DNA of 24,000 nucleotides from Pyrinomonadaceae bacterium. GTDB lineage: Bacteria; Acidobacteriota; Blastocatellia; Pyrinomonadales; Pyrinomonadaceae. The stretch is taken from the NCBI GenBank assembly GCA_041394845.1, contig JAWKHL010000001.1, forward strand, positions 464,116 to 488,115. The letters are read 5' to 3'. The notes under the pieces are model-generated. The model was not told where the DNA came from. It made no database searches and was given only the letters and a program-made list of their open reading frames with translations. Positions 3,663 through 23,963 of this stretch are shown here, piece by piece. The position numbers were made by a program, and so were the translations under genes. Positions within the stretch are counted from its first letter, which is position 1. Each line of letters starts with the position of its first letter.

Positions 3663-3800
3663 GGTGATGGGTGATGGGTGATAGGTGATGGGAAAAAACA
3701 CTTGATAAATAATCGGTAAACGATGATTGAAAAGGGGAATAGTTAAATCCTTCAATCCCATCACCCATCACCCATCACCCATCACCCATCATTCATCACC
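3663..3800. repeat. Heptamer-built inverted repeat (units GGTGATG/GGTGATA); arms 3663-3692 and 3757-3800, 64-nt spacer
   Basis: The left arm GGTGATGGGTGATGGGTGATAGGTGATGGG is complementary to the right arm CCCATCACC(C)ATCACCCATCACCCATCACC at 29/30 positions in register. The right arm overlaps the last codons and stop of the JAMM gene. Confidence 0.8.
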
Positions 3801-4207
3801 TCTTCCTCATTAAACCTCGAACGATCCGCCTCCATCTCCCACGAACGGACGTCGGCGGCTTTGCCGTTCAAAACCGAAACGATTATGTATGACCAGACCG
3901 GCAGGGCGTGATCCAGATCGAACTGCGACGGGACGGCCCTGTCGTTCGGGTGCGAGTGATAATAGCCGATGACGTCGAGTTTTTTCTCCCGCGCGTGGCG
4001 TTCGGCCCGGAGAACGTCTTTCGGCAGGATCAAAACGCGGTTGTGCCGTTCCGATTCTTCCATGGCGTTTTCCATCGGCAAAAGTTCGACCACCTCTTTT
4101 CGTCCGTCCTCAAACCGACCGATCAGCATCCCGCCGCATTCGTGCGGAAAAGTGCTTTCGCCGTGCCGTTCGATCTGTTCGATCAATTTGTTGTTTATCG
4201 AAATCAT
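3782..4207 (-). CDS. JAMM/MPN+ zinc metalloprotease (Mec+/HcyD-like)
   Basis: 141-aa ORF. ECGGMLIG ... HSHPNDRAVPSQFD is the complete E...HxHx7Sx2D JAMM motif. Confidence 0.85.
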   Translation of the reverse strand: MISINNKLIEQIERHGESTFPHECGGMLIGRFEDGRKEVVELLPMENAMEESERHNRVLILPKDVLRAERHAREKKLDVIGYYHSHPNDRAVPSQFDLDHALPVWSYIIVSVLNGKAADVRSWEMEADRSRFNEEEVMNDG

Positions 4208-4216
4208 ATTTTTGGT

Positions 4217-4296
4217 AATAATTGATAACGGAAAATGGATAATGGTGTTTTTTGCTCGAAAGATCTCTCATTATCCGTTATCCATCATCAATTATT
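4217..4296. repeat. Imperfect inverted repeat built from GATAAT/GGATAAC-type units; arms 4217-4244 and 4269-4296, 24-nt loop
   Basis: AATAATTGATAACGGAAAATGGATAATG versus CATTATCCGTTATCCATCATCAATTATT, about 24/28 complementary by eye. Fills the gap between the MetY-like stop (4296-4298) and the JAMM ATG (4207). Confidence 0.7.
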
Positions 4297-5483
4297 CATT
4301 TTAAGACCGCTTGCTCGATGTCGGCGATGATGTCTCCGATGTCTTCGATGCCGACCGAGATTCTGATCAATCCTTCCGAAATTCCAAGAGCGGCGCGGCG
4401 TTTCGGCGAGAGTTCACGGTGCGAACTCGTGGCCGAGTGCGAAACCAGCGTGTAAATGTCGCCGAGACTGGTTGCGCGGACCGCCAGTTTCAGATTGTCC
4501 ATCAGGCGAAAGGCCGCCTCGCGCGTGTCGTCTTTCAGTTTGATCGAGACCAGAGCTCCGCCGTGTGGATCGCGTAAAACTTTTTTTGTCAACTCTTTAT
4601 CGTCCGTTAATAGAGGATGATAAACCCTTTCGATCCGATCGTTTCCGGTCAGAGTCCCGGCCAGAATCTTTGCGTTCGAGCATTGCCTTTCGAGCCTCAA
4701 ACCGAGCGTTTTGACGCCGCGCAAAATCTGATGCGCCTCCCAGACGCTCAAAACCCCTCCGACCAGTTTCATCACGCCGACCAGATTTGGCCGGTCGAAT
4801 TCCTCGTTCGAGATGACGATCCCGCCCAGCGAATCGGCGTGTCCGCCCAGATACTTGGTCGCCGAATGGACAGAAAAATCCGCGCCCAGAGTCAAAGGCC
4901 GACACAGATAGGGCGAGGCGAACGTGTTGTCAACGATCAGGCGCGCGCCCGATTCGTGGGCGATTTCGGCGACCGCTTCGATGTCGCAGATCTTAAGCAG
5001 CGGATTGGAGATGGTTTCCGCCAAAAGCACACGCGGTTTCGTTTCCCTGGCCTCATCGCGCAAACGGTCTAAATCGTTAAAGTCGGCCGTCCGGGTTTTT
5101 ATTCCGAACGAGCCGAAGATCTTGCCCAGCAGATCGAACGACGCGCCGTAAAGATCCTGCGAGGCCAGAACGACCGCACCCGGTGCGAGTTCGCAGGCCG
5201 AAAGCGCCGCGTGAATGGCCGCCATTCCCGAAGCGTAGGCGACGGCGAATTTTCCATCTTCGATCGCCGCCAGAGATTCTTCGAGCGCCGCCACGGTCGG
5301 GTTTCCGTAGCGGGAATAAACGTAATCGCCGCCCTCACCGGCGAAAACCGCGTCCATCTGTTCCATCGAATCGTAAGTGTAAGTCGCCGTCGCATAGATC
5401 GGCGTCGCAACCGGTCTCCCGACCGGTCTCGCCCGCCTTTCCCCCGCGTGAACAAGTTTTGTGTTGATCGAAAATTCGCTCAT
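4296..5483 (-). CDS. Cys/Met-metabolism PLP-dependent enzyme (MetB/MetZ/MetY family: O-acylhomoserine sulfhydrylase or cystathionine gamma-synthase)
   Basis: ORF track gives 4296-5513, but the first 10 codons read through the GGATT repeat, so the ATG at 5483 is more likely. Contains NTKLVHAGE, ASGMAAI and FSVHSATKYLGGHADSLGG (the S-x-T-K PLP-lysine motif of this family). The subfamily cannot be resolved by eye. Confidence 0.85.
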   Translation of the reverse strand: MSEFSINTKLVHAGERRARPVGRPVATPIYATATYTYDSMEQMDAVFAGEGGDYVYSRYGNPTVAALEESLAAIEDGKFAVAYASGMAAIHAALSACELAPGAVVLASQDLYGASFDLLGKIFGSFGIKTRTADFNDLDRLRDEARETKPRVLLAETISNPLLKICDIEAVAEIAHESGARLIVDNTFASPYLCRPLTLGADFSVHSATKYLGGHADSLGGIVISNEEFDRPNLVGVMKLVGGVLSVWEAHQILRGVKTLGLRLERQCSNAKILAGTLTGNDRIERVYHPLLTDDKELTKKVLRDPHGGALVSIKLKDDTREAAFRLMDNLKLAVRATSLGDIYTLVSHSATSSHRELSPKRRAALGISEGLIRISVGIEDIGDIIADIEQAVLK

Positions 5484-5535
5484 AAATCCAATCCAATCCA
5501 ATCCAAAATCCAAAATCCGAAATCCAAAATCAAAA
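5484..5535 (-). repeat. Single-arm tandem array of GGATTTT/GGATT units (sense RNA) abutting the MetY-like start codon
   Basis: Minus-strand reading: TTTTGATTTTGGATTTCGGATTTTGGATTTTGGATTGGATTGGATTGGATTT followed directly by ATG. No inverted partner nearby. Confidence 0.8.
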
Positions 5536-5568
5536 GGCTCTCGCGCTAAAGTCTTTAGCGCGAGAGCC
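5530..5568 (-). terminator. Intrinsic terminator in the leader of the MetY-like gene (perfect 15-bp stem flanked by an A-run and a U-run)
   Basis: GGCTCTCGCGCTAAAG-TC-TTTAGCGCGAGAGCC (5536-5568). On the minus-strand RNA it is followed by UUUUGAUUUUGG. About 50 nt upstream of the ATG at 5483. Confidence 0.7.
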
Positions 5569-5680
5569 TTTTACAAAAAATTTTCTCTGCGGTTCTTTAG
5601 CAGTTTTTAACGTGGAGCAAGTTATCCTTAAATCGCCACGCCGAAACTCTTTCATTTGAGTTTCATGTCAATAAACGGCA
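5569..5680 (-). promoter_or_regulatory. Structured 5' leader; candidate riboswitch aptamer (SAM-II/SAM-V-like impression, unverified)
   Basis: Minus-strand RNA has hairpin GAAACUC-AAAUGAAA-GAGUUUC (5664-5643), then CGUGGCGAUUUAAGGAUAACUUGCUCCACGUUAAAAACUGCUAAAG (5640-5595). In the second element a CGUGG/CCACG stem encloses a U/A-rich loop with CUUGC, and the 3' tail GCUAAAG could pair with that loop as a pseudoknot. Confidence 0.35.
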
Positions 5681-5709
5681 ATTTAACAATTTGCCCGAAA
5701 GCGTGTCAA
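5681..5709 (-). promoter_or_regulatory. Sigma-70-like promoter TTGACA-N17-TTAAAT for the MetY-like/JAMM/E1 transcription unit
   Basis: Minus strand: TTGACA (5709-5704), exact 17-nt spacer, TTAAAT (5686-5681). Confidence 0.55.
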
Positions 5710-5765
5710 GCCGGGTTGATTCCAAATGGAGATTCATTTTGCTTTTAATCTTCAACGAGCGCCCG

Positions 5766-6143
5766 TCAGCAGGTCGAGTGAAACAGTCCTCCGACCGGCG
5801 TGTCTTCGGCGAGTTTGTTATAGAGTTCGACGGCCGCGCGGGTTTCTTCGACATGAACCGGGATCCCGCGCTGGCGCAGAAGATCGAGGGTTTCGGGGCA
5901 GGTCTGAAGAACAAGTTCCATGCCGCGGGTAAGGACGATGACCTGACTGCCGTGATCGAGAAGTTCCTCGACATCGGCGGGCTGAATTCCGGGCACATGC
6001 CGCGTTCCTGTCTCGCTCCAGTCCCAGTCGCGACCTCCGCCGGGATAAAGTTTGAAATCTTTTCCGAGGCCGAGCCCTTCGACTTCCATTCTTCCCCAGG
6101 AAATATGCGTAATGCGCGGTGAGCGCCCCTTTAATTCATTCAT
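5766..6143 (-). CDS. Mth938-like (DUF498/AAMDC-like) domain protein
   Basis: 125-aa ORF with a strong SD (AAGGAAGG) upstream of the ATG at 6143. ITHISWGRMEV...DFKLYPGG...WDWSETGTRHVPGIQPADVEELL...VIVLTRGM resembles the Mth938 domain family. Recognised from memory only. Confidence 0.65.
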   Translation of the reverse strand: MNELKGRSPRITHISWGRMEVEGLGLGKDFKLYPGGGRDWDWSETGTRHVPGIQPADVEELLDHGSQVIVLTRGMELVLQTCPETLDLLRQRGIPVHVEETRAAVELYNKLAEDTPVGGLFHSTC

Positions 6144-6157
6144 TTTGCCTTCCTTTA

Positions 6158-6355
6158 CTACTTTTCTTTAACCAACATCCTCTCAAAATGTTCCCGCGAA
6201 TCTGCGACAGACAATTCTTCCTTTGGATTCATACCGATGAATGGAAGAAGGACAATTCTGCCGTCAGGTGAAAAATCCAACATTTCACCTCCTCCGCTCG
6301 CGGCAAAATCCAGATAATCCGGGCAAATTCGGACGCCAAATGGTCTTTGTTGCAT
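6158..6355 (-). CDS. Hypothetical small protein (65 aa)
   Basis: ORF ends 14 nt before the Mth938-like ATG and has ordinary amino-acid composition. No clear SD and no recognisable motif. Confidence 0.35.
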   Translation of the reverse strand: MQQRPFGVRICPDYLDFAASGGGEMLDFSPDGRIVLLPFIGMNPKEELSVADSREHFERMLVKEK

Positions 6356-6420
6356 TTAGGAAATCAGATCCTTTGGTTGAGGAGGCGTTCTTTTGGTTTC
6401 CTGGAATTTCACTGGTTCAA

Positions 6421-6466
6421 GTTGTTGATAATAATCAAAGCTTTGATTATTATCAACAACTTTTTT
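6421..6466. repeat. Perfect 40-bp palindrome followed by T6
   Basis: GTTGTTGATAATAATCAAAG|CTTTGATTATTATCAACAAC (6421-6460), then TTTTTT (6461-6466). Each half contains the Fur/Zur-box-like TGATAATAATCA. Confidence 0.8.
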
Positions 6467-6523
6467 ACAGGAAAAAAGTCGATCGGCACGCTCTTAAATT
6501 GTCAAAGAACCATTGGAATTTGA

Positions 6524-6590
6524 GATTTGGGATTTGGGATTGCGGATTTTCTGGCAATCGAGCCAAATCCGCAATCCGCAATCCCAAATC
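6524..6590. repeat. Heptamer-built inverted repeat (units GGGATTT/GCGGATT); arms 6524-6549 and 6565-6590, 15-nt loop
   Basis: GATTTGGGATTTGGGATTGCGGATTT versus AAATCCGCAATCCGCAATCCCAAATC, 24/26 complementary. The right arm overlaps the cysteine synthase stop codon (6589-6591). Confidence 0.8.
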
Positions 6591-7542
6591 AAAAAGTTTG
6601 ATCCCAAAATCTTTCGCTCAAATATCTGCCTCCGCCGTCGCAGAGGATCGTGACGATGACGGCTTTTTCCTTTAGTTCACGGGCTAGATTTATTGAGGCC
6701 GCTACGTTTGCGCCGGAACTGATGCCGACGAAGAGTCCTTCCTGGCGGGCCAGTCGGCGCGTCATCTCTTGCGCTTCTTCTGTCGAGATCTCCAGATTTT
6801 CGTCGGCCAGTCCGGCCTGGTAAATGCCGGGAACGCGGGCCGATCCCAGATGTTTCATTCCTTCGAGACCGTGGAGAGGCGAGTCGGGCTGGACGGAAAT
6901 CGTTTGCACCATCGGGTTTATTTCTTTCAGACGGCGCGAGGTCCCGGTGAAAGTGCCGGTCGTTCCCAAACCGGCCACAAAATGTGTGATCCGCCCGAAT
7001 GTCTGCCTCCAGATCTCCGGTGCGGTCGAGTGAAAATGCGCCCGCCAGTTGGCCTCGTTGTTGTATTGATCGGGATAGAAGTAGCGGTCGGGGAATTGGC
7101 GGACAAGTTCTTTGGCCCGCGCCTGAGCCCCGTCGGTCCCTTCGAGCGCGTCGGTTTCGATGATCTCCGCGCCGTAAAGCCGCAAAATTCGCTTTCGTTC
7201 GGGGCTGGCGTTTTTCGGCAGGGTCAAAGCCACCCGATACCCGCGCGCCGCACCGATCATCGCATAAGCGATGCCGGTGTTTCCGCTGGTCGCATCGAGG
7301 ATCGTTTTGCTTTTGGTGAGTTCGCCCGAATTTTCGCCTTCGAGTATCATTGCCAAGGCGGCCCGGTCCTTGACCGAACCGCCCGGATTCATAAATTCGG
7401 CCTTGGCGTAGATCTCGATTTCGTCCGGCAGATCGTCGATGACGTTCCTCAAACGGATCAAGGGCGTATTGCCGATCCGCGATTCGAGCGAGTTATCCTC
7501 GGTTTGATAAGTTATTTTCGTTTCTAAAACAGCCGTTTGCAT
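6589..7542 (-). CDS. Cysteine synthase, fold-type II PLP enzyme (CysK/CysM family)
   Basis: ORF track gives 6589-7566. The ATG at 7542 has an AGGGG SD upstream. Motifs: IGNTPLIRL, NPGGSVKDRAA (PLP lysine), SGNTGIAYA, GTTGTFTG, GISSGANV. Confidence 0.85.
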   Translation of the reverse strand: MQTAVLETKITYQTEDNSLESRIGNTPLIRLRNVIDDLPDEIEIYAKAEFMNPGGSVKDRAALAMILEGENSGELTKSKTILDATSGNTGIAYAMIGAARGYRVALTLPKNASPERKRILRLYGAEIIETDALEGTDGAQARAKELVRQFPDRYFYPDQYNNEANWRAHFHSTAPEIWRQTFGRITHFVAGLGTTGTFTGTSRRLKEINPMVQTISVQPDSPLHGLEGMKHLGSARVPGIYQAGLADENLEISTEEAQEMTRRLARQEGLFVGISSGANVAASINLARELKEKAVIVTILCDGGGRYLSERFWDQTF

Positions 7543-7555
7543 AAATACCCCTGAT

Positions 7556-7610
7556 CGAAAAAACAAAGCCGACCGCGAAATTTAATGTTCGAGACATTCA
7601 CGGTCGGCTG
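7556..7610 (-). terminator. Intrinsic terminator (attenuator) between the Cys-rich leader ORF and cysteine synthase
   Basis: Minus-strand RNA: A8 run, CAGCCGACCG (7610-7601) ... CGGUCGGCU (7575-7567) with an inner AAUGU/ACAUU stem, then UUUGUUUUUU. Ends 14 nt before the cysteine synthase ATG. Confidence 0.7.
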
Positions 7611-7635
7611 TTTTTTTTGTATTTTAGCGTTTACA

Positions 7636-7734
7636 TCAAGTTGTCCTAACGCTAAACCTCAGCCGCCGCGCCCGACAGGCGCATCCGTTACAACAGCAAC
7701 AACAAATTCGGATTTTCGACTGAGTTTTCATCAT
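7636..7734 (-). CDS. 32-codon Cys-rich leader peptide ORF (MMKTQSKIRICCCCCNGCACRARRLRFSVRTT)
   Basis: Own translation of the minus strand: ATG ATG AAA ACT CAG TCG AAA ATC CGA ATT TGT TGT TGC TGT TGT AAC GGA TGC GCC TGT CGG GCG CGG CGG CTG AGG TTT AGC GTT AGG ACA ACT TGA. Seven of 32 codons are Cys, five of them consecutive (7704-7690). Too short to appear in the ORF track. SD is weak or absent. Confidence 0.6.
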   Translation of the reverse strand: MMKTQSKIRICCCCCNGCACRARRLRFSVRTT

Positions 7735-7754
7735 TTTCTAAATCTTTACAAAAA

Positions 7755-7784
7755 AGTCTACATTCCGGACGCAGACGATGTCAA
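7755..7784 (-). promoter_or_regulatory. Sigma-70-like promoter TTGACA-N18-TAGACT upstream of the leader ORF
   Basis: Minus strand: TTGACA (7784-7779), 18-nt spacer, TAGACT (7760-7755). About 20 nt upstream of the leader ATG. Confidence 0.5.
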
Positions 7785-7795
7785 GATGGTTTTGG

Positions 7796-7871
7796 ATTTT
7801 GGGTTTTAGATTTTGGATTTTGGATTAAATTTCGAGGATAAATCCAAAATCCAAAATCTAAAACCCAAAAT
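7796..7871. repeat. Perfect 31-bp inverted repeat built from GGATTTT/GGGTTTTA units, 14-nt loop
   Basis: ATTTTGGGTTTTAGATTTTGGATTTTGGATT (7796-7826) and its exact reverse complement (7841-7871). Confidence 0.9.
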
Positions 7872-7883
7872 TTAAAAGAGATG

Positions 7884-7917
7884 AAGCGGCTTATGATCGG
7901 GAAAACATAAGCCGCTT
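7884..7917 (-). terminator. 12-bp perfect hairpin, probable terminator of the phosphohexomutase/FtsB-like unit
   Basis: AAGCGGCTTATG-N10-CATAAGCCGCTT. The minus-strand RNA continues CAUCUCUUUUAAAUUUU, which is U-rich but not an immediate U-run. Confidence 0.45.
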
Positions 7918-8023
7918 AAATGGCGGAAGGTTAAACTGTAGGCAAAGCGGAGCGGATAGGCAAAAGGCGGATTATTTAGCGGGTAGGCAGTTTATGCCGG
8001 AGAATGACTCTCCGCTAGGTAGC

Positions 8024-8338
8024 TTAATTCACCGGCACAAGAATCTTTTCATTCGGACGGCTCATTCCGATCTTGCGAGCTTCGCGCTCGATGATCCGGG
8101 AGTCCGTCTTCAATCCCTTGACTTCCTTTTGAAGTAATTCATTTTCAGTTGTCAATTGTTCAATCTCGGTCGTCAGAGTTTCATGCTGTGTCATTTCGGC
8201 TCTCAGCTCTGAGAAAGCGCGCAGATTGATGGCGATGCAAACCATAAAGGTTATCGAAACGATGACCGCAAAAACAAACCACTGTGGAGTTGTACTTGTC
8301 TGACGTTTCTCTAGTTTTGCGCGTTTTTTTTTACTCAT
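8024..8338 (-). CDS. Septum formation initiator (FtsB/DivIC family) protein
   Basis: ORF track gives 8024-8383. The ATG at 8338 (MSKKKRAKLEK) avoids overlap with the upstream gene. Single TM helix WFVFAVIVSITFMVCIAINL, a coiled coil (EIEQLTTENELLQKEVKGLK) and the C-terminal IIEREARKIGMSRPNEKIL signature. Confidence 0.7.
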   Translation of the reverse strand: MSKKKRAKLEKRQTSTTPQWFVFAVIVSITFMVCIAINLRAFSELRAEMTQHETLTTEIEQLTTENELLQKEVKGLKTDSRIIEREARKIGMSRPNEKILVPVN

Positions 8339-8351
8339 AACGGCAGAACTG

Positions 8352-9743
8352 TTAGTCCAGTAAGTAGCGATGGCCTTGCTCAAGTAACACCTCCAAATCT
8401 TCCCTGTTTTCGCTTTCAGCGTAAATTCTGACCAGCGGTTCGGTGCCGGAAGGACGCATCAGCATCCAGCTTTTATCGGCAAAAATGAATTTTACGCCGT
8501 CCGTTCGATCTATTTTTTCAATCTTTCTTCCCGCTATTTCATGCGGATCTTGAGATAACTTATCTTTAAGCATTTGGGCGACTTCCGGCGTCAGTTTGAC
8601 TCCGATGCGGCCCGATTCCAGTTTGCCGACGCGCCCGTAAAGTTCTTCGAGTTGCTCGGTCAGGCCGGTTCCCCGGGCGGCGACCGCTTCGGCCGCCAGC
8701 AGACAGGCCAGAATGCCGTCCTTTTCGGGGTAATGCCCTCGGATCGAAAGCCCGGCGGATTCCTCTCCGCCGAGGATGATCTCGTCTTTATTTATCAATT
8801 CGCCGATGAACTTGAAACCGACCGGCGTCTCGTAAAGTCTGATGCCCCGGTTTTCGGCCACCCGGTCGACCAGATGAGTCGTTGCCACGCTGCGGGCGAC
8901 CCCCAGCATCCAACCCCTCGATTCCACCAGATAATCCGTCAAAAGCGCGATCAGCTGATTGGGCTCGATAAATTGGCCGTTGCTGTCGATCACTCCGAAA
9001 CGATCACCGTCCCCGTCCGTGGCCAGCCCGAGCGTCAGGTTGCCGGACGTGACTTTCTCGCGAAGTTCATCCAGATGATCTTTGCCGGGTTCGGGGGAGC
9101 GGCCGCCGAAAGTAACATCGCGCCAGTCGTGAATGGTTTCGCACTCCAAACCGTTGTCGCGCAACAGTTTGTCAAGGTAACCGCGACCCGTTCCCCAAAG
9201 CGCGTCGTAGGCGTATTTGCCACGGGCGGCGGCGATCTGGTCGAGGCGCAACTTGCTTTTCAAATCTTCCAGATAATCGGGGCGTGGGTCGAATTCTTCG
9301 ATTGAACCCCCGCCCGCGGTTTCGGCCTTGGCACCCATTTCGAAATTGCTTTCAATTCGTTTGGTTATTTCCGGCAGAGCCGGGGCACCGTCCGATGTGG
9401 AAAACTTGATACCCTGGTATTCAGGCGGATTATGCGAAGCGGTAAAATTTATTCCGCCGGCCGCTTTTTGATTCCGGATCGTATGGGAAATCGTCGGCGT
9501 CGGCGTCGGATTCTGGCATAAAAGAACCCGAAATCCTTTGTCTTTGGCGATTTCAGCCGCCACTGCCGAAAAAGTCTCTCCCATAAACCGCGAATCATGT
9601 CCGATGATCAGGGACTGACCGCTTTCCTTATAATTGTCTTTCAAATAACTGCAAATCGCTTCGGTTACAAGCCTGACATTTTCAAAAGTGAAGTCATCGG
9701 CAATGATCGCTCTCCACCCAGATGTACCGAAACGAATTGACAT
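8352..9743 (-). CDS. alpha-D-phosphohexomutase (phosphoglucomutase/phosphomannomutase family)
   Basis: ORF track gives 8352-9776. The ATG at 9743 (MSIRFGTSGWRA) has GGAAAG upstream. Motifs: TASHNPPEYQGIK (phosphoserine loop), DGDGDR (Mg loop), GGEESAG (sugar loop), RPSGTEPLVRIY (phosphate loop). Confidence 0.85.
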   Translation of the reverse strand: MSIRFGTSGWRAIIADDFTFENVRLVTEAICSYLKDNYKESGQSLIIGHDSRFMGETFSAVAAEIAKDKGFRVLLCQNPTPTPTISHTIRNQKAAGGINFTASHNPPEYQGIKFSTSDGAPALPEITKRIESNFEMGAKAETAGGGSIEEFDPRPDYLEDLKSKLRLDQIAAARGKYAYDALWGTGRGYLDKLLRDNGLECETIHDWRDVTFGGRSPEPGKDHLDELREKVTSGNLTLGLATDGDGDRFGVIDSNGQFIEPNQLIALLTDYLVESRGWMLGVARSVATTHLVDRVAENRGIRLYETPVGFKFIGELINKDEIILGGEESAGLSIRGHYPEKDGILACLLAAEAVAARGTGLTEQLEELYGRVGKLESGRIGVKLTPEVAQMLKDKLSQDPHEIAGRKIEKIDRTDGVKFIFADKSWMLMRPSGTEPLVRIYAESENREDLEVLLEQGHRYLLD

Positions 9744-10169
9744 AAAATCTTTCCAAGGTCTAAAGTATGACTTCAAAAGAATCTAAACTTTACTTTTATT
9801 TCAAATGGGTTTGGTTTAGAGATCTTATTTAGTTTTGTTGTTTTTTTCCGAAATTAAAGGGCTATCTCAGAAGTAGAACCAAACTATCATAATCCGTTTA
9901 ATTCTGTAAAGACATTTTTAGGTGTTGTTAAACTTCTTTATTTTCAATGGTTTGGAACTATTAGTTTAAGTGATTGTTCAACAGAGTGCTTAAACGTGAA
10001 CGTTAGGTGAACGGAAATCCACCTTTTTATCAGGCCTGTGAAAATTCCCAGTAATTACAGGTGTCTTGTGAAAAAAAATCTCACGGCAAATGTGGAAAAA
10101 CTTTAAACAGCAGTTTAAGTAGATTAATTTGATCCGAGAAAACAACTGAAAATCTTTCGGGTTTTGAGA

Positions 10170-12524: not shown

Positions 12525-12547
12525 TCCTCGAAGATTAAACTAAAAAA

Positions 12548-12586
12548 GCGCCGCAGATCACCGAGTGATCTGCGGCGCTTTTTTTT
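12548..12586 (+). terminator. Strong intrinsic terminator after the radical SAM gene
   Basis: AAAAAA-GCGCCGCAGATCA-CCGAG-TGATCTGCGGCGC-TTTTTTTT: 13-bp perfect stem, 5-nt loop, T8. Confidence 0.85.
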
Positions 12587-17600: not shown

Positions 17601-18271
17601 TCGGCGGTTTTGAATTTCGCGCCGGAGCCAGAAATAACAATAATCTGATAAAAACGGACCGGAACGGGGCGACCTCCGTCATCAAAGAGGGAATTTACAG
17701 TTCGCCGCTGGTAACGCCCGACGGCCGATGGGTGCTGGCGAGCAAAAGAATTACCTGGGGGAAAAACCCTTTTATCGTCCGGGTCAACCCCCGGACCGGT
17801 CGCGAGTTGCCGGTCGAACTGGAACCGGCCGACTATTTGTCTCCGATCTGTTTTATCCCTTCGCACAACCGGGTTTTGGTGGTCGCTTATAAAAAAGCCG
17901 AAGCGGGAAGTTCGAACTTTTGGGATGAAAAGGCGATGCGATATTATCTGCTCGATGCTTCGACCGGGGCGATTCAAAAGGTCAAAGGCGAATTCCGTCC
18001 CCTGATGCAACAATCCTATCGCGGCCTGCAACCGACGGGGCGGCCCGAGGAATTCTGGGCGGCCATCTACGATCGGGAAAAGGATTCGACCTCGGTCGGA
18101 CGTTACAACGCCGGATCGTTCACCTTTGAAACGGTCCTTACAATTCCCGGGATCGAACTCGACAGCATGAACATCTGGGTCGATGAAACGGAAGGCAAGA
18201 TCTATTTCGTGTACCGCAGCGAAACGGCCGGAACCGGACATCTGTTGAGGTTGCCGCTTCCGGGGAAATGA
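14681..18271 (+). CDS. Large secreted protein of unknown function: signal peptide + HEAT/ARM-like repeat region + conserved C-terminal module (approx. 16838-18271)
   Basis: 1196-aa ORF with a GGAG SD. Signal peptide MRHFIFSAVLILIFLPLLAAA|QT. HEAT-like stretches (NPSVRSAAVRNLIKI; DLRASAAKALGRYRAPEAASALRHAL). The C-terminal module is collinear with the 485-aa paralog (CEYGC...GGGRR, AVWKDGDDLRVLVED, SPLVTPDGRWVLASK, FRPLMQQSYRGLQPT, EFWAAIYD, VGRYN, NIWVDETEG). Confidence 0.85.
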   Translation: MRHFIFSAVLILIFLPLLAAAQTPGNAKLLEELLDFPAPPRVVKDAKETGEKKRPAEFFDSRNVPADNAPIGDLLDYWKYQSSNYNDFRYNVKPSKESLKAILEALEENPAQLSDFLSILPTDPEVAEVVKRIYERELQSDDLNSSLLQNVRNWLKYHSDTFITELQQGARTVNASGNGEDGAGIENQNELISLAEVDWDLAMPIVEQLETKDSASPLFTLAQYVRYHHALAAENKSETKKFRSILQKIVENKKAPYKSRDLAMDALVLGGDYEGRTEWYLSLLADETLLELQENGFTGLTTLPRHSPRSREDWIPQMVKLLGSDNPSVRSAAVRNLIKIADINNPDVIKGLLPWLADPEWAKESDDDERLSLIRMLGEMDVPESVPGLISVVLKEEEDLRASAAKALGRYRAPEAASALRHALQNETDSDYRKEIISGLIACGGLTAFEQMTGLEAYAAQISTEEGEEAYENYTYGYDEDDTPPMPVEVSIGEFLSEIEDPSGELAYQVIKRVGVLRRENPPVAAILLGFMQKWDHRLIDLEMFNWLENGKADADTVLRILAKRENIRRNIPNELAGSGGKNALTRGIAATVAGDPVRMSGILSEGETEERIALLTAARLTRTILPVPEVGALLSSPDPLLSRAARRYLETEDSAAARSLILAKYPDEIPILGSRRAFIPDLKRDYSENDALDELFESVTGNYFYSGNYTRLIEMEDRFRDEIRKDSELQAVFAFVGEKEGGEQVIRVFPDRITYSIYPDQAHFREKNISSEDYETFFNHLVGAGIDNLGPMAVGTCEYGCSGEEFIMIGRGGGRRIYFRGLSTPKELTGLKRIFEDLGRENMSLRYRLEDRIKGLEILLAEPGLVAHAVWKDGDDLRVLVEDLTKKGDVFTRLFKQEARESLDGPIDYQRRNELQQKRRERLVSDFFAWRGFYDGKLTGETVAQPEGIAYLSDFPYEEFLSFSNPRTFQKQFGGFEFRAGARNNNNLIKTDRNGATSVIKEGIYSSPLVTPDGRWVLASKRITWGKNPFIVRVNPRTGRELPVELEPADYLSPICFIPSHNRVLVVAYKKAEAGSSNFWDEKAMRYYLLDASTGAIQKVKGEFRPLMQQSYRGLQPTGRPEEFWAAIYDREKDSTSVGRYNAGSFTFETVLTIPGIELDSMNIWVDETEGKIYFVYRSETAGTGHLLRLPLPGK

Positions 18272-18306
18272 TTCGATTTTGGATTTTGGATTTTGGATTT
18301 CGGATT
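18272..18306 (+). repeat. Single-arm tandem GGATTTT array starting 1 nt after the stop codon of the 1196-aa gene
   Basis: TTCGATTTTGGATTTTGGATTTTGGATTTCGGATT. No inverted partner. Lies 39 nt upstream of the next ATG (18345). Confidence 0.8.
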
Positions 18307-18344
18307 GTTTTTCTTCTGAGGGGATTTGGGGTTGAGGGATTTTT

Positions 18345-21300
18345 ATGTTTGGGAGAACTTGGCAAGTTTGGGGGGTGATTCTTTTTACGGTTTTTTGCCC
18401 GGTCGTTTTGCGGGCGCAGGGCGGGAATGAAAATTTGCTCCGCCAACTGCTCGATTTACCCGCACCGCCTCCGGTGGCGGAAAAAGAAGAGGAAAAATCC
18501 GAAAAACTTCCGCGTTACGCCATGTCTTTTGACGAAAAGGAGTTTCCGGCCGACGACGCTCCGATCGAAGACCTGCTGGCTTACTGGAGCGTTCAGGCTG
18601 AAACGACATTTCTGGGTCGGGGGACAAACGTTCCGAAACTGTCGGTCAAATCGGCCGAAAGATTGCTCGGCGAACTCGAAAACACTCCGGAGAAACTTGA
18701 CGGGTTCCTGAAACATTTGCCGACGACGCCGGAAATCGCCGGTCAGGTCAAAGAGATCTTCGACCTTTCGCAAAACGCCGGGGGAATTGATGACGATTGG
18801 CGAAAGACCGTTAAAAGCTGGCTGAAACACAACAGCCGGTTTTATCTCGACCAACTGGCGGCCGAGGCCTCTTTGGCCCGCGATCAGGAGAAATACGGAT
18901 CGGTCGATAAGGACGAGGAACTGAAAGCCTTGGCCCGGGTCGACCGGGAGGCGGCCCGGAATGTTCTGAAAAAGCTGGAAAATGATCCGGCCAATCCCCG
19001 GACTTCCGCTCTGGCGAAAACCCTGCTTTATAAAACGGCTCTTTTCGCCGGGGACGACATCGAAGCGGAAAAATACCGCGATGAACTGAAAAAAATCATC
19101 TCGGACCGGAATGCGCCGGCCTTCGCCCGCGACTCGGCTTCGGACGCTCTGTTTGAAACCGATTGGCCGGGCCGGGACGATTTTTATCTTTCCCTGATGG
19201 AAGATGAGAGTCTGTTGTTTCCGAGAGAGAAGATCACTTTGTATCGTCCGCTGACGACCCTGCCGGAAAAATATCCGGACAAATGGATCCCGATCCTGTC
19301 GAAACTGGTCGAAAGCCCCAACCGGGCGGTTCATAATGCCGCCGTTCAGAGTCTGATGAGGTTTGAAAACCGGAAAGATGCCCTCAAACCCTTGTTGCCG
19401 TGGCTGGCCGATCCGGGATGGGCCGACATTAACTGGAGTCCGGGAGGACGCATCACCTTGATGCAGGTAGTTTCGAATGTCGATCTGCCGGAAAGCGTGC
19501 CGGGGCTCATTTGGATCGTCGAAAATGAAGATCTGAACGCTCATTGGGCGGCCGGTTCGTTGGCCAAATTCAGGGACCCGCGGGCGGCGGCGGCTCTTAA
19601 AAACGCCCTCAAACGGCTCGGAGAAGAAACCTATCGAAGCGACATAGTTGAGGCTTTGATAGCCTGCGGCGGTCTGAGCGCCGACGAACAGTTGGCCGCG
19701 CTGGAATTTTACGCCGAATATATTTCAAAACCGGACAACTTTAAGAAGATCGAAAACCGCAATCCTTATGAGGATGAAGACCCGCTGCCGATCAAGGTCA
19801 GCATCGGCCGGTTTTTGTCGGTTCAGACAGAACCCGCCGAAGACCTGATCCGGCGCGCCTTCGAGCGGCAAAAGGTTTTGCGCCGGGAAAAGCCGGAGGT
19901 GGCCCGGATCCTGTCGGATTTTATGACCAGATGGGAGGGGCGTCTGGTCGATCTGGAAATGCTCCGCAAGATCTCCGGCGGCGAAGCCGATGCCGAGACG
20001 ATCCTCGGCGCTCTGGCCCGGCGTGCGGATTTAAGAAAAAACGTTCCCGCCGATCTTTTCGCCATGCGCGGCCGGATCGGTCTTCCGGCCGGAATTGCGG
20101 CCTGCGTGCTGGAAGATGAAAACGAACTTCTTTCCGCTTTTCGCCGGTCCGATGATGAAACCAGAATCTCGGTTCTGGCCTGTGCCCGGTTGATCCGTTC
20201 GCAGCTTCCGGTGCGGGAGGTCGGCGGTTTGCTGGGAAGCCGGAACAAACTGCTGGCGCTGGCCGCCGAACGCTATCTGGAATCGGAAGATGGCCCGGAA
20301 GCGCGGGGGTTGGTATTGGCCCGGCATCCGGGCGAGGCTTTGATTCTCGGAGCGCGGACATCTTTCAATCCGGCCAAAACCAAGGAGTTTTCCACTTCGC
20401 TCGGGCGGCTTTTCGCCAGCACCACCGACTGGTATATGAACGCATTGTATCCCGACTTTTCGGCATTCTCCGGGCTCGATAAGTTTGAAGACGGCCTGCG
20501 CCGGGAGGTTCTGGAAAACGACGATCTGCTGGAAGTTTACTCGATTGTGCCGACTTACGTGGTCAGAGTTTTTCGGGACCGAACCGTTTTCACCTGGTAT
20601 GAGGACGAGGCGAGGTTTCGTCAGAGGGTTTTGAAGCCGGAAGAACTGGCCGATCTGAAAAACTGGATTAGAGAAAGCGAGATTGAAGAAACGCCGCCTC
20701 TGTTCGGCGGTTGTCACTACACCTGCGGAATGCTTGAATACGTCCGGATAAACCGCAACGGCGGACGCCGGTTTTTCGCCTATACCGATGTTTCAAGCTT
20801 TGTCGGCTTACCGTTCGCCTTTCAGAAAATGCGGGAGTCGAGCGATTCAAGGCTCCGTTACTATTTGCAGGATAAAATCGAGGGATTGGAGGTTTTATGG
20901 GCGGACGAAAATCTGAAGCCGAAGGCGGTTTGGAAAGAGGGTGATGATCTGCGCGTATTGATCGCCGACCGGGAAAAGGAATCGCAGATCGATGAGGAAA
21001 TAAGCCGGCGGAACAAGATCGACGAAGAGAACGGGTTTTTGGATTACGACCAGAAAAGAAAAAGGGCGCGGGAGCGCCGGGCCGAAAGGGAATACGAGCA
21101 TTTCGGGTGGCGCTCCTTTAAGGATGGTCGTCTCGGCGACCGGGTCGAGGAACCCGTCGAAATTCCGTATCTGCGGGATAAAACGGCCTTCGCTTCGGTC
21201 GAAGATTTGAATTCCAACGACAGCATCTGGCAGGCCGGATACGAAAATTTCGAGATCCGCACCGGATTCAATTACGACACCTACGGTTTGTGGAAAGTCG

Positions 21301-21902
21301 ATCGTTCGGGTTCGTCCCGGATCGCCGCAGGCTGGTTCGGCGGAGATGTGTTTGTCAGCGGAGACTGGGCGGTGGCCGCCAAAACCGACGAAAACTGGGC
21401 CGTTCCGAACTACGTCGTCCGGGTCGATCTGAAAACGGGCAAAGAATATAAAATCGATCTGCCGCCGGCCGATAATTTTTATCCGGTCGCACTCGTTCCG
21501 GCGCATAACAAAGTTTTGCTTTACCGGGCGTCGGACGAAAGAACCCAGAAAAAAAAGAGCAACCCGAGCCCGAAAACGCCGGAATTTTATCTCCTTGACG
21601 CCGCCACCGGCAAAACCGAACTTATCGCAGGTGAGTTTCGCCCGTTGATCGATCAGACCTTCCGTTCCCTGCAACCGACCGGAAAGCCCGACGAATACTG
21701 GGCCGCCATTTACGACGAGGCGAAAAACAAAACCGAGATCGGCCGCTACAACGTCCGCCGGTTCGATTTTAAATCCGTTCTGACCGTTCCCGAGATCAAT
21801 TTGGGCAGCATGGACATCTGGGTCGATGAAAAAGAGGGGAGGATCTATATCGTCTATCAAGGGCAACTGCTGTCCGTTCCCCTGACGAAAGCGGAGGAAT
21901 GA
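18345..21902 (+). CDS. Large secreted protein of unknown function, full-length paralog of 14681-18271 (C-terminal module approx. 20496-21902)
   Basis: 1185-aa ORF with a GAGGG SD. Signal peptide ...VILFTVFCPVVLRA|QG. Collinear with the 1196-aa protein along its whole length: LLRQLLDLPAPP, ADDAPIEDLLAYW, WLKHNS, LLPWLADPGWA, PESVPGLI, LIACGGLS, RLVDLEM, RVFRDRTVFTWY, CHYTC...NGGRR, AVWKEGDDLRVLIAD, PEFYLLDAATG, FRPLIDQTFRSLQPT, EYWAAIYD, IGRYNV, DIWVDEKEG, LLSVPL. Confidence 0.85.
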   Translation: MFGRTWQVWGVILFTVFCPVVLRAQGGNENLLRQLLDLPAPPPVAEKEEEKSEKLPRYAMSFDEKEFPADDAPIEDLLAYWSVQAETTFLGRGTNVPKLSVKSAERLLGELENTPEKLDGFLKHLPTTPEIAGQVKEIFDLSQNAGGIDDDWRKTVKSWLKHNSRFYLDQLAAEASLARDQEKYGSVDKDEELKALARVDREAARNVLKKLENDPANPRTSALAKTLLYKTALFAGDDIEAEKYRDELKKIISDRNAPAFARDSASDALFETDWPGRDDFYLSLMEDESLLFPREKITLYRPLTTLPEKYPDKWIPILSKLVESPNRAVHNAAVQSLMRFENRKDALKPLLPWLADPGWADINWSPGGRITLMQVVSNVDLPESVPGLIWIVENEDLNAHWAAGSLAKFRDPRAAAALKNALKRLGEETYRSDIVEALIACGGLSADEQLAALEFYAEYISKPDNFKKIENRNPYEDEDPLPIKVSIGRFLSVQTEPAEDLIRRAFERQKVLRREKPEVARILSDFMTRWEGRLVDLEMLRKISGGEADAETILGALARRADLRKNVPADLFAMRGRIGLPAGIAACVLEDENELLSAFRRSDDETRISVLACARLIRSQLPVREVGGLLGSRNKLLALAAERYLESEDGPEARGLVLARHPGEALILGARTSFNPAKTKEFSTSLGRLFASTTDWYMNALYPDFSAFSGLDKFEDGLRREVLENDDLLEVYSIVPTYVVRVFRDRTVFTWYEDEARFRQRVLKPEELADLKNWIRESEIEETPPLFGGCHYTCGMLEYVRINRNGGRRFFAYTDVSSFVGLPFAFQKMRESSDSRLRYYLQDKIEGLEVLWADENLKPKAVWKEGDDLRVLIADREKESQIDEEISRRNKIDEENGFLDYDQKRKRARERRAEREYEHFGWRSFKDGRLGDRVEEPVEIPYLRDKTAFASVEDLNSNDSIWQAGYENFEIRTGFNYDTYGLWKVDRSGSSRIAAGWFGGDVFVSGDWAVAAKTDENWAVPNYVVRVDLKTGKEYKIDLPPADNFYPVALVPAHNKVLLYRASDERTQKKKSNPSPKTPEFYLLDAATGKTELIAGEFRPLIDQTFRSLQPTGKPDEYWAAIYDEAKNKTEIGRYNVRRFDFKSVLTVPEINLGSMDIWVDEKEGRIYIVYQGQLLSVPLTKAEE

Positions 21903-21903
21903 T

Positions 21904-22009
21904 GGTTTTGAATTTCGAGGTTTGAAGTTTGAATTGACGGGGAGACACTCGCTTTCCGCCGCCGCTTTTAACAATTCAAACTTCAAAATTCAAACCTCAA
22001 AATTAAACC
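21904..22009. repeat. Imperfect inverted repeat built from GTTTGAA(T/G)T-type units; arms 21904-21936 and 21972-22009, 35-nt spacer
   Basis: GGTTTTGAATTTCGAGGTTTGAAGTTTGAATTG versus CAATTCAAACTTCAAAATTCAAACCTCAAAATTAAACC. The inner 14 nt are perfectly complementary and the outer parts pair with register slippage. Starts 2 nt after the stop of the 1185-aa gene. Confidence 0.7.
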
Positions 22010-22019
22010 TTCCCGAAGC

Positions 22020-22048
22020 TTGCCTTTGCGCCGAAAAAAGTGTTTAAT
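22020..22048 (+). promoter_or_regulatory. Sigma-70-like promoter TTGCCT-N17-TTTAAT upstream of rpsU
   Basis: TTGCCT (22020-22025), 17-nt spacer, TTTAAT (22043-22048). About 50 nt upstream of the rpsU ATG. Confidence 0.4.
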
Positions 22049-22100
22049 AATGGTTTGCTCGAAACGAGCGGATCTTATGAGCCGAAGGGGGTGATAGCGA

Positions 22101-22322
22101 ATGGCTTTTATAACTGTTAATAACAACGAATCGATCGAAAACGCGTTGCGGCGTTTTAAACGGAAGGTGATGACCGAAGAGATCATCAAGGATTATAAAA
22201 AGCATCAGCATTTTATTCCGCCCGGCCAGAAGGCCAAGCTCAAATCGGCCAACGCCCGGAAACGCAACCGGAAACGTTTTCGTCGTCCGTTTCGTCCGAT
22301 GAACACGGGCGGCGGTCGATAG
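22101..22322 (+). CDS. rpsU: 30S ribosomal protein S21
   Basis: 73-aa basic ORF with a GAAGGGGG SD. MAFITVNNNESIENALRRFKRKV...KKHQHFIPPGQKAKLKSANARKR matches the S21 signature (ALRRFKR; EKPS/G-like segment; K/R-rich tail). Confidence 0.9.
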   Translation: MAFITVNNNESIENALRRFKRKVMTEEIIKDYKKHQHFIPPGQKAKLKSANARKRNRKRFRRPFRPMNTGGGR

Positions 22323-22348
22323 TTTTGATAAAAATTTGACTTGCAAAT

Positions 22349-22413
22349 GATGCGTTGTGCGAACGGGTTTTGAAAATAAAACACCTCGCATTCAAACGCA
22401 TCTTTTTATTTTT
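22349..22413 (+). terminator. Interrupted hairpin plus T-rich run after rpsU, abutting the surE ATG
   Basis: GATGCGTT..TGCGA...TCGCA..AACGCATC (22349-22402), then TTTTTATTTTT. The loop is large, so terminator activity is uncertain. Confidence 0.35.
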
Positions 22414-22416
22414 GCC

Positions 22417-23172
22417 ATGAGCAATTCGGAAAAACCCCGCATCCTGATCACCAATGACGACGGTTATCATTCGGAAGGGATCATCGCGCTGGAGGAGGCG
22501 CTGAGCGAGATCGGCGATTGTTTCGTCGTCGCGCCGGCTTCGGAAATGAGCGGAGCCTCTCATTCGCTGACGCTGGCCCGCCCTTTGAGGATCCGCCAGA
22601 TCGACGAACGGCACTGGACCATCGACGGCACTCCGACCGATTGCGTAACTCTGGCCTTAAACCAGATCCTGCCGCCCGAACTGCGCCCCGATATCTGCGC
22701 TTCGGGGATCAATCCGGGGGCCAATCTGGGCGATGACGCGACCTATTCGGGAACCATCGCCGGAGCGCTCGAAGCGACCATTCTCGGCGTTCCGGGGCTG
22801 GCGTTTTCTCTCGTCGCTTACCGCAATCAGGATTACACCGAATCGGCCCGGGTGGCCAGGCAAATGGTCGAAAAGGCGCTCCGCGAGGGATTGCCGGAAG
22901 GGACGCTTTTGAACGTCAACATCCCGAAAGGCGTGCCGAAAGGCGTCCGCATCACCAAACAGGGTTTTAAGAACGCCCGGCCCGTGATCAGCGAACATAT
23001 CGATCCGCGCGGGAAACTCTACTACTGGATCGGCGAGGTGCGCGAGGGTTTTCACCCCGAAGGCGGAACCGATTTCGAGGCGGTCGACGAGGGATTCGTT
23101 TCGGTAACGCCGATGCGGAGCGATCTGACCAATCATCAGGCGATCGCCGAATTGAGGGATTGGGAGAAATAG
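22417..23172 (+). CDS. surE: 5'/3'-nucleotidase SurE
   Basis: ORF track starts at GTG 22357. The ATG at 22417 gives MSNSEKPRILITNDDGYHSEGIIALEEAL, the canonical SurE N-terminus (ILxTNDDG). GINPGANLGDDATYSGTIAGA also matches. Confidence 0.9.
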   Translation: MSNSEKPRILITNDDGYHSEGIIALEEALSEIGDCFVVAPASEMSGASHSLTLARPLRIRQIDERHWTIDGTPTDCVTLALNQILPPELRPDICASGINPGANLGDDATYSGTIAGALEATILGVPGLAFSLVAYRNQDYTESARVARQMVEKALREGLPEGTLLNVNIPKGVPKGVRITKQGFKNARPVISEHIDPRGKLYYWIGEVREGFHPEGGTDFEAVDEGFVSVTPMRSDLTNHQAIAELRDWEK

Positions 23173-23216
23173 TCGGAAAATTGAGGGATTCCGAAGGCTT
23201 CCCGGACTAACGATTG

Positions 23217-23864
23217 ATGGACGAATTTCAGATAACCCGTCGGGCGATGATCAAACGCCTGCGGGAGCATTACAAATTAAAGGACGAACGGGTGCTCGGG
23301 GTGATGGAAAATGTTCCCCGCCATCTGTTCGTTCCGGATGCGCTGAAATCTCAGGCTTACAAAGACAACGCTCTTCCGATCCCCGGCAACCAGACCATTT
23401 CTCAACCCTTTATCGTCGCCCGGATGACCGAACTGCTGGAACTGACGCCGCACAGCCGCGTTCTTGAGATAGGAGCCGGTTCCGGTTATCAAACGGCGAT
23501 CCTGGCCAGTTTGGCCGAAAGGGTTTACGCCGTCGAAAGAGTCCCGAAGCTGGCCCGGCAGGCCGCCGAAAGGCTCGACTCGCTGGGCATCAGAAACGTG
23601 GCGTTGGTTTGCGGCGACGGGACCCTCGGTTGGGAAGAGAAAGCGCCTTTTGACGCGATTCTGGTGGCGGCCGGAAGCCCGGTCCTGCCGATGCCTCTGG
23701 TCGATCAACTGAAGATCGGCGGCCGTCTGGTGATACCGATCGGACAGGATACGAAATCGCAGAATCTGATCCGCGTCATCCGAATGGAAAAAAGTTACCG
23801 GACTCAGGACTTCGGTGCCTGCGCCTTCGTCCCGCTGATCGGCGAACACGGATGGCAGGATTAG
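23217..23864 (+). CDS. pcm: Protein-L-isoaspartate O-methyltransferase
   Basis: ORF track starts at TTG 23214; an ATG follows at 23217. VPRHLFVP, QTISQPFIVARM, VLEIGAGSGYQTAILA (SAM-binding motif I), GDGTLGW, PFDAILVAAG. surE-pcm adjacency is a well-known conserved pair. Confidence 0.9.
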   Translation: MDEFQITRRAMIKRLREHYKLKDERVLGVMENVPRHLFVPDALKSQAYKDNALPIPGNQTISQPFIVARMTELLELTPHSRVLEIGAGSGYQTAILASLAERVYAVERVPKLARQAAERLDSLGIRNVALVCGDGTLGWEEKAPFDAILVAAGSPVLPMPLVDQLKIGGRLVIPIGQDTKSQNLIRVIRMEKSYRTQDFGACAFVPLIGEHGWQD

Positions 23865-23872
23865 ATGTTTTT

Positions 23873-23963
23873 GTGATGGGTGATAGGTGATGGGTGATAG
23901 GATATAACTAGTATGAGGGACGTTGATCGGCGAACAATTACCGTTCACCCATCACCTATCACC
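23873..23963. repeat. Heptamer-built inverted repeat (units GGTGATG/GGTGATA, same unit as 3663-3800); arms 23873-23901 and 23946-23963
   Basis: GGTGATAGGTGATGGGTG (23879-23896) is exactly complementary to CACCCATCACCTATCACC (23946-23963). Begins 9 nt after the pcm stop. Confidence 0.8.

Follow-up and report, generated by a model that had tools for sequence, protein, structure and literature searches.

Heptamer-array hairpins at gene and tRNA boundaries of a Pyrinomonadaceae genome and their possible kinship with rRNA intervening sequences

A 24,000-nt stretch of the genome of a Pyrinomonadaceae bacterium, a soil acidobacterium (G000, 6.03 Mb in 12 contigs; G000:C1:464116-488115, referred to here as the window) carries six intergenic hairpins, the arms of which are tandem arrays of 7-nt units. 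SurE encoded in the window shares 78-86% identity with its counterparts in Pyrinomonadaceae/Blastocatellia MAGs. The six loci are members of a genome-wide hairpin family, whose repeats are of one type with the GGGAATC arrays of Xanthomonas and, more loosely, with the short tandemly repeated repetitive (STRR) sequences of cyanobacteria. Each member of the family is a module in which each arm comprises 4-5 heptamer units (~31 nt), the G-rich, C-poor strand runs inward from both outer ends, and these ends are set against a functional boundary, mostly a stop codon that often comes from the first unit, otherwise a tRNA end or a start region. Because the same arms enclose genes of the PF05635 family (23S_rRNA_IVP), the gene-less hairpins can be read as elements akin to rRNA intervening sequences (IVSs) that reside outside rRNA. 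Our preferred reading, which we put forward tentatively, is that the hairpins are IVS-like elements with heptamer-array arms and no gene, installed at the boundaries of genes and tRNAs; they may be co-transcribed with the adjacent genes, and RNase III probably processes them. The original prediction, made for the window from its sequence alone, is supported in part.

Abundance, polarity and placement of the arrays

All six predicted hairpins are present. Tandem Repeats Finder (TRF) detects period 7 in each of their arms, which are 19-37 nt long and 84-100% complementary. Their predicted RNA folds have energies of -26.6 to -68.2 kcal/mol (z -4.7 to -9.6 against dinucleotide shuffles), which no shuffle out of 200 matches (0/200). 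A single long stem is the predicted fold of every locus (6/6), and the suggested pairing of the arms in several registers is real. All six loci are G-first, that is, the G-rich strand points inward on both arms. Five of them are in contact with a stop codon, as had been noted, the exception being the hairpin at 7790-7877.

TRF run on the whole genome yielded 1,664 arrays of period 7; periods 6 and 8 gave 314 and 439, respectively. After merging, the period-7 set amounts to 1,631 arrays, or 0.77% of the genome and 5.2% of its non-coding DNA. Partner arrays located at most 250 nt apart form 298 inverted pairs versus 13 direct ones, and this abundance is well above chance. The left arm is G-rich in 281 of the 298 inverted pairs, an orientation that is identical when seen from either strand. 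From 294 pairs, 33 copies of a miniature inverted-repeat transposable element (MITE) were removed, and the remaining 261 were used for positional statistics; G-first polarity characterizes 249 of 260 non-MITE pairs. The claim that each locus has its own unit is refuted by these data, since 144 of the 294 pairs are GGATTTT-like and 89 are GGTGATG-like, within a total of 32 unit classes. Among all arrays, the commonest units are GGATTTT (355 arrays), GATGGGT (228) and CGGATTT (217), followed by a tail of 193 canonical units. The copy number has its mode at 4.0-4.9 (757/1,664 arrays), and each of the major unit classes peaks at 4-5 units. This mode is shared by single-G units (AATTGTT, ATCATTT, AATGGTT); rare units decay geometrically. 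The hairpin arms are 20-38 nt long, with a median of 31 nt. The two arms of a locus had also been said to match each other. Partner arms are more alike than non-partner arms in the GGATTTT class (0.94 vs 0.85) but not in the GGTGATG class (0.89 vs 0.89).

The genome-wide scan of period-7 arrays against stop codons, proposed along with the original prediction, does reveal enrichment at gene ends. With genes called by a crude caller of our own (4,745 genes, 85% coding), an array is found at -21 to +12 nt of the stop codon at 596 of the 4,745 gene ends, the sense strand being G-rich in 527 cases and C-rich in 33. This polarity is not an artefact of ORF (open reading frame) calling, because units devoid of stop codons in any frame are split in the same way (309 G-rich versus 13 C-rich at gene ends). 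Distances between array and stop peak at -2 and +3, and the stop shares the phase of the first unit (TGAttttgga, TAGattttgg). At array-bearing gene ends TGA, TAG and TAA make up 57%, 25% and 17% of the stops, versus 41%, 19.5% and 40% genome-wide. In the non-MITE set, 74% of the distances to a stop lie between -21 and +10 nt, with a median gap of 3 nt, extending to the whole genome what had been noticed in the window; the median gap to the start is 20-52 nt, and 127 pairs are nearer a stop versus 35 nearer a start. By context, the 298 inverted pairs lie between co-directional (191), convergent (69) or divergent (34) genes or are intragenic (4). Relative to the available base pairs, they are enriched approximately twofold between convergent genes and depleted approximately twofold between divergent ones. 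Solo intergenic arrays are mostly G-sense at stops (219, median 2 nt, versus 48 C-sense) and mostly C-sense before starts (113 versus 48 G-sense). One rule covers pairs and solo arrays alike: the outer end abuts the gene and the G-rich strand reads inward.

The arrays are not confined to the vicinity of protein-coding genes. A period-7 array is present within 60 nt of 41 out of 71 tRNA genes, mostly at a distance of 0-9 nt, and the rRNA operon spacer on contig C9 is included among these cases. An island of ~30 tRNA genes on one strand (C5:221027-236483) contains a GGATTTT-type hairpin in almost all of its spacers, 0-9 nt from the tRNA ends.

At least half of the hairpins are unlikely to act as terminators, a role considered in the original prediction. 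A run of T within 12 nt past the 3' arm occurs in 27 of 191 hairpins, and the stems are A/U-rich and ~31 bp long. Of the co-directional hairpins, 93 out of 168 (55%) are located less than 30 nt from the next start; the downstream gene therefore must be read through them, as in the MetY-JAMM-E1 operon of the window, which bears out the claim that hairpins occur inside operons. The missing U-tract, the A/U-rich stems and the proximity to starts rule out canonical intrinsic terminators. Those of G000 have stems that begin a median of 33 nt past the stop codon. Neither stability (ddG ~0) nor the share of G-U pairs (439/7009 vs 430/6960) differs between sense and antisense strands of the hairpins, ruling out an RNA element selected on one strand. 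As a separate observation, a perfect 20-bp hairpin between A6 and T6 is found at window positions 12542-12584, 18 nt past the stop of a 603-aa gene; this is a canonical bidirectional terminator, and hence the genome does use ordinary terminators.

Arms shared with PF05635 genes

There are seven PF05635 genes in the genome. Five of the seven are flanked on either side by period-7 arrays at no more than 120 nt, an arrangement shown by 4% of all genes (P ~2e-6). Around a sixth, arrays of the GGATTTT class lie slightly farther off on the two sides, so that six out of seven reside inside heptamer arms. Each of the bracketed genes has its own unit, and these units recur as gene-less hairpins; for example, the gene at G000:C1:2446664 is bracketed by the GGATAAT-class unit of the window. 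Among 66 PF05635 loci from 11 genomes, periodic inverted arms were found in 54 (42 with period 7, 12 with period 8 or 9), and 46 of these 54 cassettes are G-first. The proteins covary with the units: identity is 77% between cassettes with an identical unit, 50% with one mismatch and ~35% for the rest (permutation 0/2000). Where proteins from different genera share 64% identity, an identical unit implies that the unit is constrained. The nearest solved relative is XCC0516 of Xanthomonas campestris (PDB 2gsc, five chains, E 2e-27). The start of XCC0516 is overlapped by a four-unit GGGAATC array (Xcc 622956-622983), 6 nt from XCC0517 (PMC4692102 S2 File Table A, repeat 15), on which the authors of that study made no comment. 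Our literature search found no paper tying PF05635 to heptamer repeats.

The IVSs of 23S rRNA provide the model for our preferred reading. In Coxiella, Leptospira and Brucella, the ORF-bearing IVSs (S23p/PF05635) have a long terminal inverted repeat around a loop in which a PF05635 gene can reside, and are viewed as selfish, and the Coxiella IVS has a 28-bp stem that is cut by RNase III (PMC4990558). The window loci likewise possess a terminal inverted repeat and a long stem, and six of the seven G000 PF05635 genes lie inside such arms. Unlike the rRNA IVSs, the six window loci are gene-less and positioned between protein genes rather than in rRNA helices; furthermore, tandem heptamer arms were not found described for IVSs in searchable papers. 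By this analogy, the hairpins would be largely selfish or near-neutral DNA. Judging from their spacing, which leaves no place for promoters, and from the missing U-tract, they would be co-transcribed with their neighbours. The resulting ~30-bp RNA stems would probably be cut by RNase III, in the same way as those of rRNA IVSs, and the cuts would segment the transcript while leaving its ends paired. An RNase III gene (rnc) is encoded in G000.

A more far-reaching proposal, which we consider speculative and rather unlikely, assigns an active role to the proteins. PF05635 four-helix-bundle (Avd-like) homopentamers would be putative sequence-specific binders of heptamer arrays, with one unit per lineage; the pentamer would set the length of 4-5 units, and the proteins would create, maintain or spread both the cassettes and the gene-less hairpins. 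If true, this would define an undescribed class of protein-plus-repeat element and would explain STRRs, the Xanthomonas GGGAATC repeats and rRNA intervening sequences jointly.

Several results weigh against a connection of the gene-less hairpins with PF05635 or are accommodated equally well without it. Simple co-inheritance could account for the covariation of the proteins with their units. PF05635 content is no predictor of how dense gene-less arrays are. Thus, the relative G009 has hairpins and zero PF05635 matches, whereas G003, a member of the same genus as G000, combines 13 PF05635 cassettes with an array density of just 44 per Mb and zero pairs in 160 kb. Inverted arms of heptamers or 9-mers flank the PF05635 genes of G003. 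A search of 65 long loops revealed no PF05635 remnants. The enrichment between convergent genes and the lower frequency of canonical terminators at array-bearing convergent ends (5% vs 23%) are expected equally well of host-selected 3'-end elements. Three simple forms of the connection were considered and rejected. Confinement of arrays to PF05635-bearing genomes fits eight of eight unbiased array-rich samples, with G009 as the counter-example; sufficiency of PF05635 for arrays is contradicted by G003, G022, G023 and G029; and descent of the gene-less hairpins from decayed PF05635 cassettes was rejected because the 65 long loops yielded no protein remnants.

Relatives, known repeats and rival explanations

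Array density was compared in 15 relatives, with 40-160 kb sampled per genome; the contigs of G009 were picked for array matches, so that its sample is biased. The samples of G001, G007, G009, G011, G014, G020, G021, G025 and G027 are array-rich and those of G003, G022, G023, G026, G029 and G030 array-poor. G-first polarity is found in 43 of the 48 pairs in these samples. Two operon junctions of the window are informative about the history of the hairpins. At the JAMM-E1 junction, the genes are separated by a spacer of 6-17 nt in other genera and by a hairpin in G000, G002 and G006, in all three of which the first unit of the hairpin supplies the JAMM stop. The unit at this junction is the same on both arms and differs between genomes (GAATGAT in G002, GAGTGAT/GAATGAT in G006, GGGTGAT in G000). 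The MetY-JAMM hairpin occupies the same junction in the three genomes and has kept its GGATAAY unit. This comparison shows insertion relative to a tight ancestral junction of genes and supports a subsequent change of the two arms in concert. Concerted evolution of the arms, as originally envisaged, is borne out at JAMM-E1; simple slippage fails to account for the fixed length of 4-5 units and the strict polarity. The hairpins at 21906-22007 and 23873-23963 are specific to G000 within the genus, and same-genus genomes differ in synteny around the former. In many other Pyrinomonadaceae, hairpins with other units directly follow pcm, the gene preceding the latter.

Tandem heptamer repeats have been noted since 1990 in cyanobacteria, as STRRs, and since 2015 in Xanthomonas; to our knowledge, neither a function nor an origin has been established for those of bacteria. 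STRRs of heterocystous cyanobacteria consist of tandem heptamers and abound in intergenic DNA. The STRR-like character recognized in the original prediction is borne out, as the G000 arrays are abundant intergenic tandem heptamers too, although the phylum (Acidobacteriota) and the units differ. Rules of inverted pairing, polarity and stop-codon placement were not confirmed for STRRs in searchable papers. A closer counterpart is found in Xanthomonas. Rehm et al. 2015 (PMC4692102) described heptameric repeats of Xanthomonas (GGGAATC) and Nostoc (GGGGA(C/T)T), with no function known. The GGGAATC arrays have a mode of four units, form 70-75 convergent inverted pairs per genome and are ~90% intergenic; they lie on average 28 nt from the upstream ORF and 160 nt from the next one, are rare between divergent genes, and vary in length and sequence across related species (PMC4692102). 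G000 resembles this system in the over-representation of period 7, the mode of ~4 units, the G-rich-first convergent pairs, their intergenic location closer to the upstream ORF end and their scarcity between divergent genes. Since the architecture is the same, the class is already described, contrary to the original statement that no class of matched inverted heptamer arrays at gene ends was known. Unlike in Xanthomonas, the host is an acidobacterium whose pairs fall into at least 32 unit classes, and most units are unable to form G-quadruplexes; stops are abutted more tightly (median 1-3 nt, in phase), arrays also flank tRNAs, and the polarity extends to solo arrays.

Four other explanations of the family were weighed. 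The strongest of these, possible but in our view not likely, is that the hairpins are RNA 3'-end elements selected by the host. They would have arisen in place by slippage and hairpin-templated correction and would protect or terminate mRNAs or insulate cistrons, in the manner of repetitive extragenic palindromic (REP) sequences and bacterial interspersed mosaic elements (BIMEs). Besides the twofold convergent enrichment, the twofold divergent depletion and the terminator deficit mentioned above, this explanation draws on the tight placement after stops, the retention of two operon hairpins across the genus with the JAMM-E1 unit changed in both arms, and the better match of partner arms in the GGATTTT class. 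The host-selection explanation is difficult to reconcile with zero strand asymmetry in ddG or G-U pairs, the missing U-tract and the 55% of hairpins without space for a downstream promoter. The same elements flank tRNAs and enclose PF05635 genes, and the distribution is patchy among close relatives. Moreover, the use of few units at hundreds of loci with a fixed length of 4-5 units is not predicted by slippage in place.

An improbable explanation is that the arrays are a pure mutational by-product of a polymerase with a 7-nt slippage preference and have neither function nor element identity. An excess of heptamers among long simple sequence repeats in many bacteria, ascribed to the polymerase footprint, is cited in passages of PMC4679880 and PMC4692102 and would fit, as would the differences in copy number between MITE copies and between orthologous sites. 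However, the copy number is non-geometric, with a sharp peak at 4-5 units where rare units are geometric; polarity is strict, few units dominate and same-genus G003 is nearly array-free. Also, arrays abut stops in phase, which expansion cannot yield, because it adds DNA and consumes no flanks.

We attach similarly little probability to a DNA-level structure or protein-binding site (G-quadruplex, cruciform, or a site for a single-strand-binding protein such as a cold-shock protein or the PF05635 pentamer) in which the RNA hairpin is incidental. The elements are strand-symmetric, as expected of a DNA feature. GGGAATC oligonucleotides form G-quadruplexes with a preference for four units (Rehm et al., PMC4692102), the GGTGATG class has four GGG tracts, and the arrays of 4-5 units recall the homopentamers formed by PF05635 relatives (PDB 2gsc, 5 chains). 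By contrast, GGATTTT, CGGATTT and AATTGTT arrays have no GGG and follow the same design, GGG tracts being confined to the GGTGATG class. Because single-G units show the same 4-5-unit mode, the G-quadruplex cannot be a general explanation and is rejected as the cause of the four-unit mode. Inverted pairing is left unexplained in any case.

Ordinary MITEs, or REPINs mobilised by a transposase or by a REP-associated tyrosine transposase (RAYT, Y1 transposase), are very improbable. G000 does have eight PF01797 (Y1 transposase, RAYT-like) genes and one genuine MITE family of 37 copies with GTGATGG arms, so that the earlier denial of a single REP/MITE sequence needs this qualification. It is otherwise upheld: no window locus belongs to the MITE family, flanks are unique in 261 of 294 pairs, and loops are unclustered in 146 of 202. 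The MITE copies are located 47-330 nt from genes and not at stops. Clustering of loops and flanks turned up this one separate family and no other, and a MITE identity was rejected for the window loci. With REP, BIME and REPIN elements the G000 hairpins share their presence in hundreds of intergenic copies, the enrichment at 3' ends and in operons, and genome-specific sequences. The arms of the hairpins are tandem heptamers, not REP palindromes, and the RAYT-like genes have other, GC-rich palindromes at their flanks; a heptamer array is found within 500 nt of one out of seven PF01797 genes, versus a background of 37%. The REPIN/RAYT candidate is ruled out by the absence of heptamer flanks at these genes and by G009, which has hairpins and zero PF01797 matches.

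The MITE and the palindromes deserve brief descriptions of their own. MITE copies of ~175 nt (e.g. G000:C2:429572-429779; none within the window) have ends TACTCTGTAAAT...ATTTACACAGTA with terminal inverted repeats and short TA/TTAA-like flanking duplications; inside, GTGATGG-array arms surround a conserved 58-nt core, and the unit number differs between copies. GC-rich REP-like palindromes, such as GTCGGGAGAATCCCGAC and CCTCCATCTGAAGATGGAGG, lie alongside PF01797 genes (e.g. C1:324257-324745, C3:163753-164199 and C7:28633-29067 of G000) and form a second repeat system, unrelated to the heptamers. Two further candidates were discarded. RVT_1 was not found in the array-rich, near-complete genomes G006, G007, G009 and G014, on which ground a reverse-transcriptase or telomerase-like origin was rejected, and the sole G000 copy of PF13366 (GxxExxY nuclease) has no arrays within 200 nt.

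Taken as a rule set, the fixed module of 4-5 units, the inward G-strand, the in-phase outer ends at stops and tRNAs, and the units shared with PF05635 arms argue against plain slippage and G-quadruplex explanations. The same rules point to a testable link with rRNA intervening-sequence proteins.

Loci of the window and their surroundings

Coordinates of the six hairpins are collected in Table 1 together with those of two solo arrays, which had been missed in the original prediction. The labels given to the MetY-like, JAMM and E1 genes are right by domain matches, which identify Cys_Met_Meta_PP (MetY-like), Prok-JAB, a ThiS-ThiF-rhodanese fusion, PALP and PCMT in the window.

Table 1. Heptamer-array hairpins and solo arrays of the window (window coordinates; folds are those of the predicted RNA)
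Feature	Position	Arms	Strand	Unit, loop	Arm length, complementarity	Fold (kcal/mol), z	Gene boundaries
JAMM/E1 hairpin	3663..3800	3663-3693 + 3756-3786(-3800)	both genes -	GGTGATG/A, 62-nt loop	31 nt, 97%	-68.2, -6.5	JAMM stop 3782-3784 within arm; E1 ATG 3633 at 29 nt from other arm
MetY-like/JAMM hairpin	4217..4296	4217-4244 + 4269-4296		GGATAAT/C, 24-nt loop	28 nt, 86%	-26.6, -6.6	arm abutted by MetY-like stop 4296-4298; JAMM ATG 4207 at 9 nt
Hairpin at 3' end of PALP (cysteine-synthase-like) gene	6519..6595	6519-6549 + 6565-6595		GGGATTT/GCGGATT	31 nt, 87%	-42.4, -7.4	PALP stop 6589-6591 within arm
Hairpin near DivIC-like gene	7790..7877	7790-7826 + 7841-7877		GGATTTT + mirrored variant units	37 nt, 95%; core 7796-7826/7841-7871 perfect 31/31	-42.6, -9.6	146 nt downstream of DivIC-like gene (nearest stop), past GC hairpin 7886-7922
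Hairpin after HEAT-repeat protein gene, upstream of rpsU	21906..22007	21906-21936 + 21972-22002		GTTTGAA	31 nt, 84%	-31, -4.7	HEAT-protein stop 21900-21902, 3 nt ahead of arm
Hairpin after pcm	23873..23963	23873-23901 + 23945-23963		GGTGATG/A	core 23879-23897/23945-23963, 19 nt, 100%	-40.1, -5.3	pcm stop 23862-23864, 8 nt before; following ATG 23975, 11 nt beyond
Solo array (TRF)	5485..5535		-	(GGATT)4(GGATTTT)5			abuts MetY-like ATG (5483)
Solo array	18275..18306		+, G-rich sense	(GATTTTG)x4.6			3 nt past stop of 1196-aa gene

The solo array at 5485-5535 fills the gap between a leader terminator (5532-5572) and the MetY-like ATG, and the GGA of its units is the sole Shine-Dalgarno-like motif ahead of this start. 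The other solo array fits the genome-wide rule for such arrays. The spurious ORF extensions HHLSPITHH and DFGLDWIGF, pointed out in the original prediction, are real, and the 5485-5535 array gives rise to the extension LDFGLDWIGF. As arrays make false N-terminal extensions and supply stops that alter C-termini, annotation pipelines should account for them.

The remaining observations concern the neighbourhood of the loci. A scan of the window against Rfam at the gathering threshold returned zero families. A perfect palindrome of 22+22 nt with zero spacer (AAGTTGTTGATAATAATCAAAG / CTTTGATTATTATCAACAACTT) is found at 6419-6462; it follows the heptamer hairpin, precedes a small ORF on the minus strand, and looks like an operator. 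The 'E1' gene (window 2185-3633, minus strand) encodes a three-domain ThiS-ThiF-rhodanese fusion; its product, the JAB protease and the MetY-like enzyme resemble a sulfur-carrier pathway for homocysteine/methionine.

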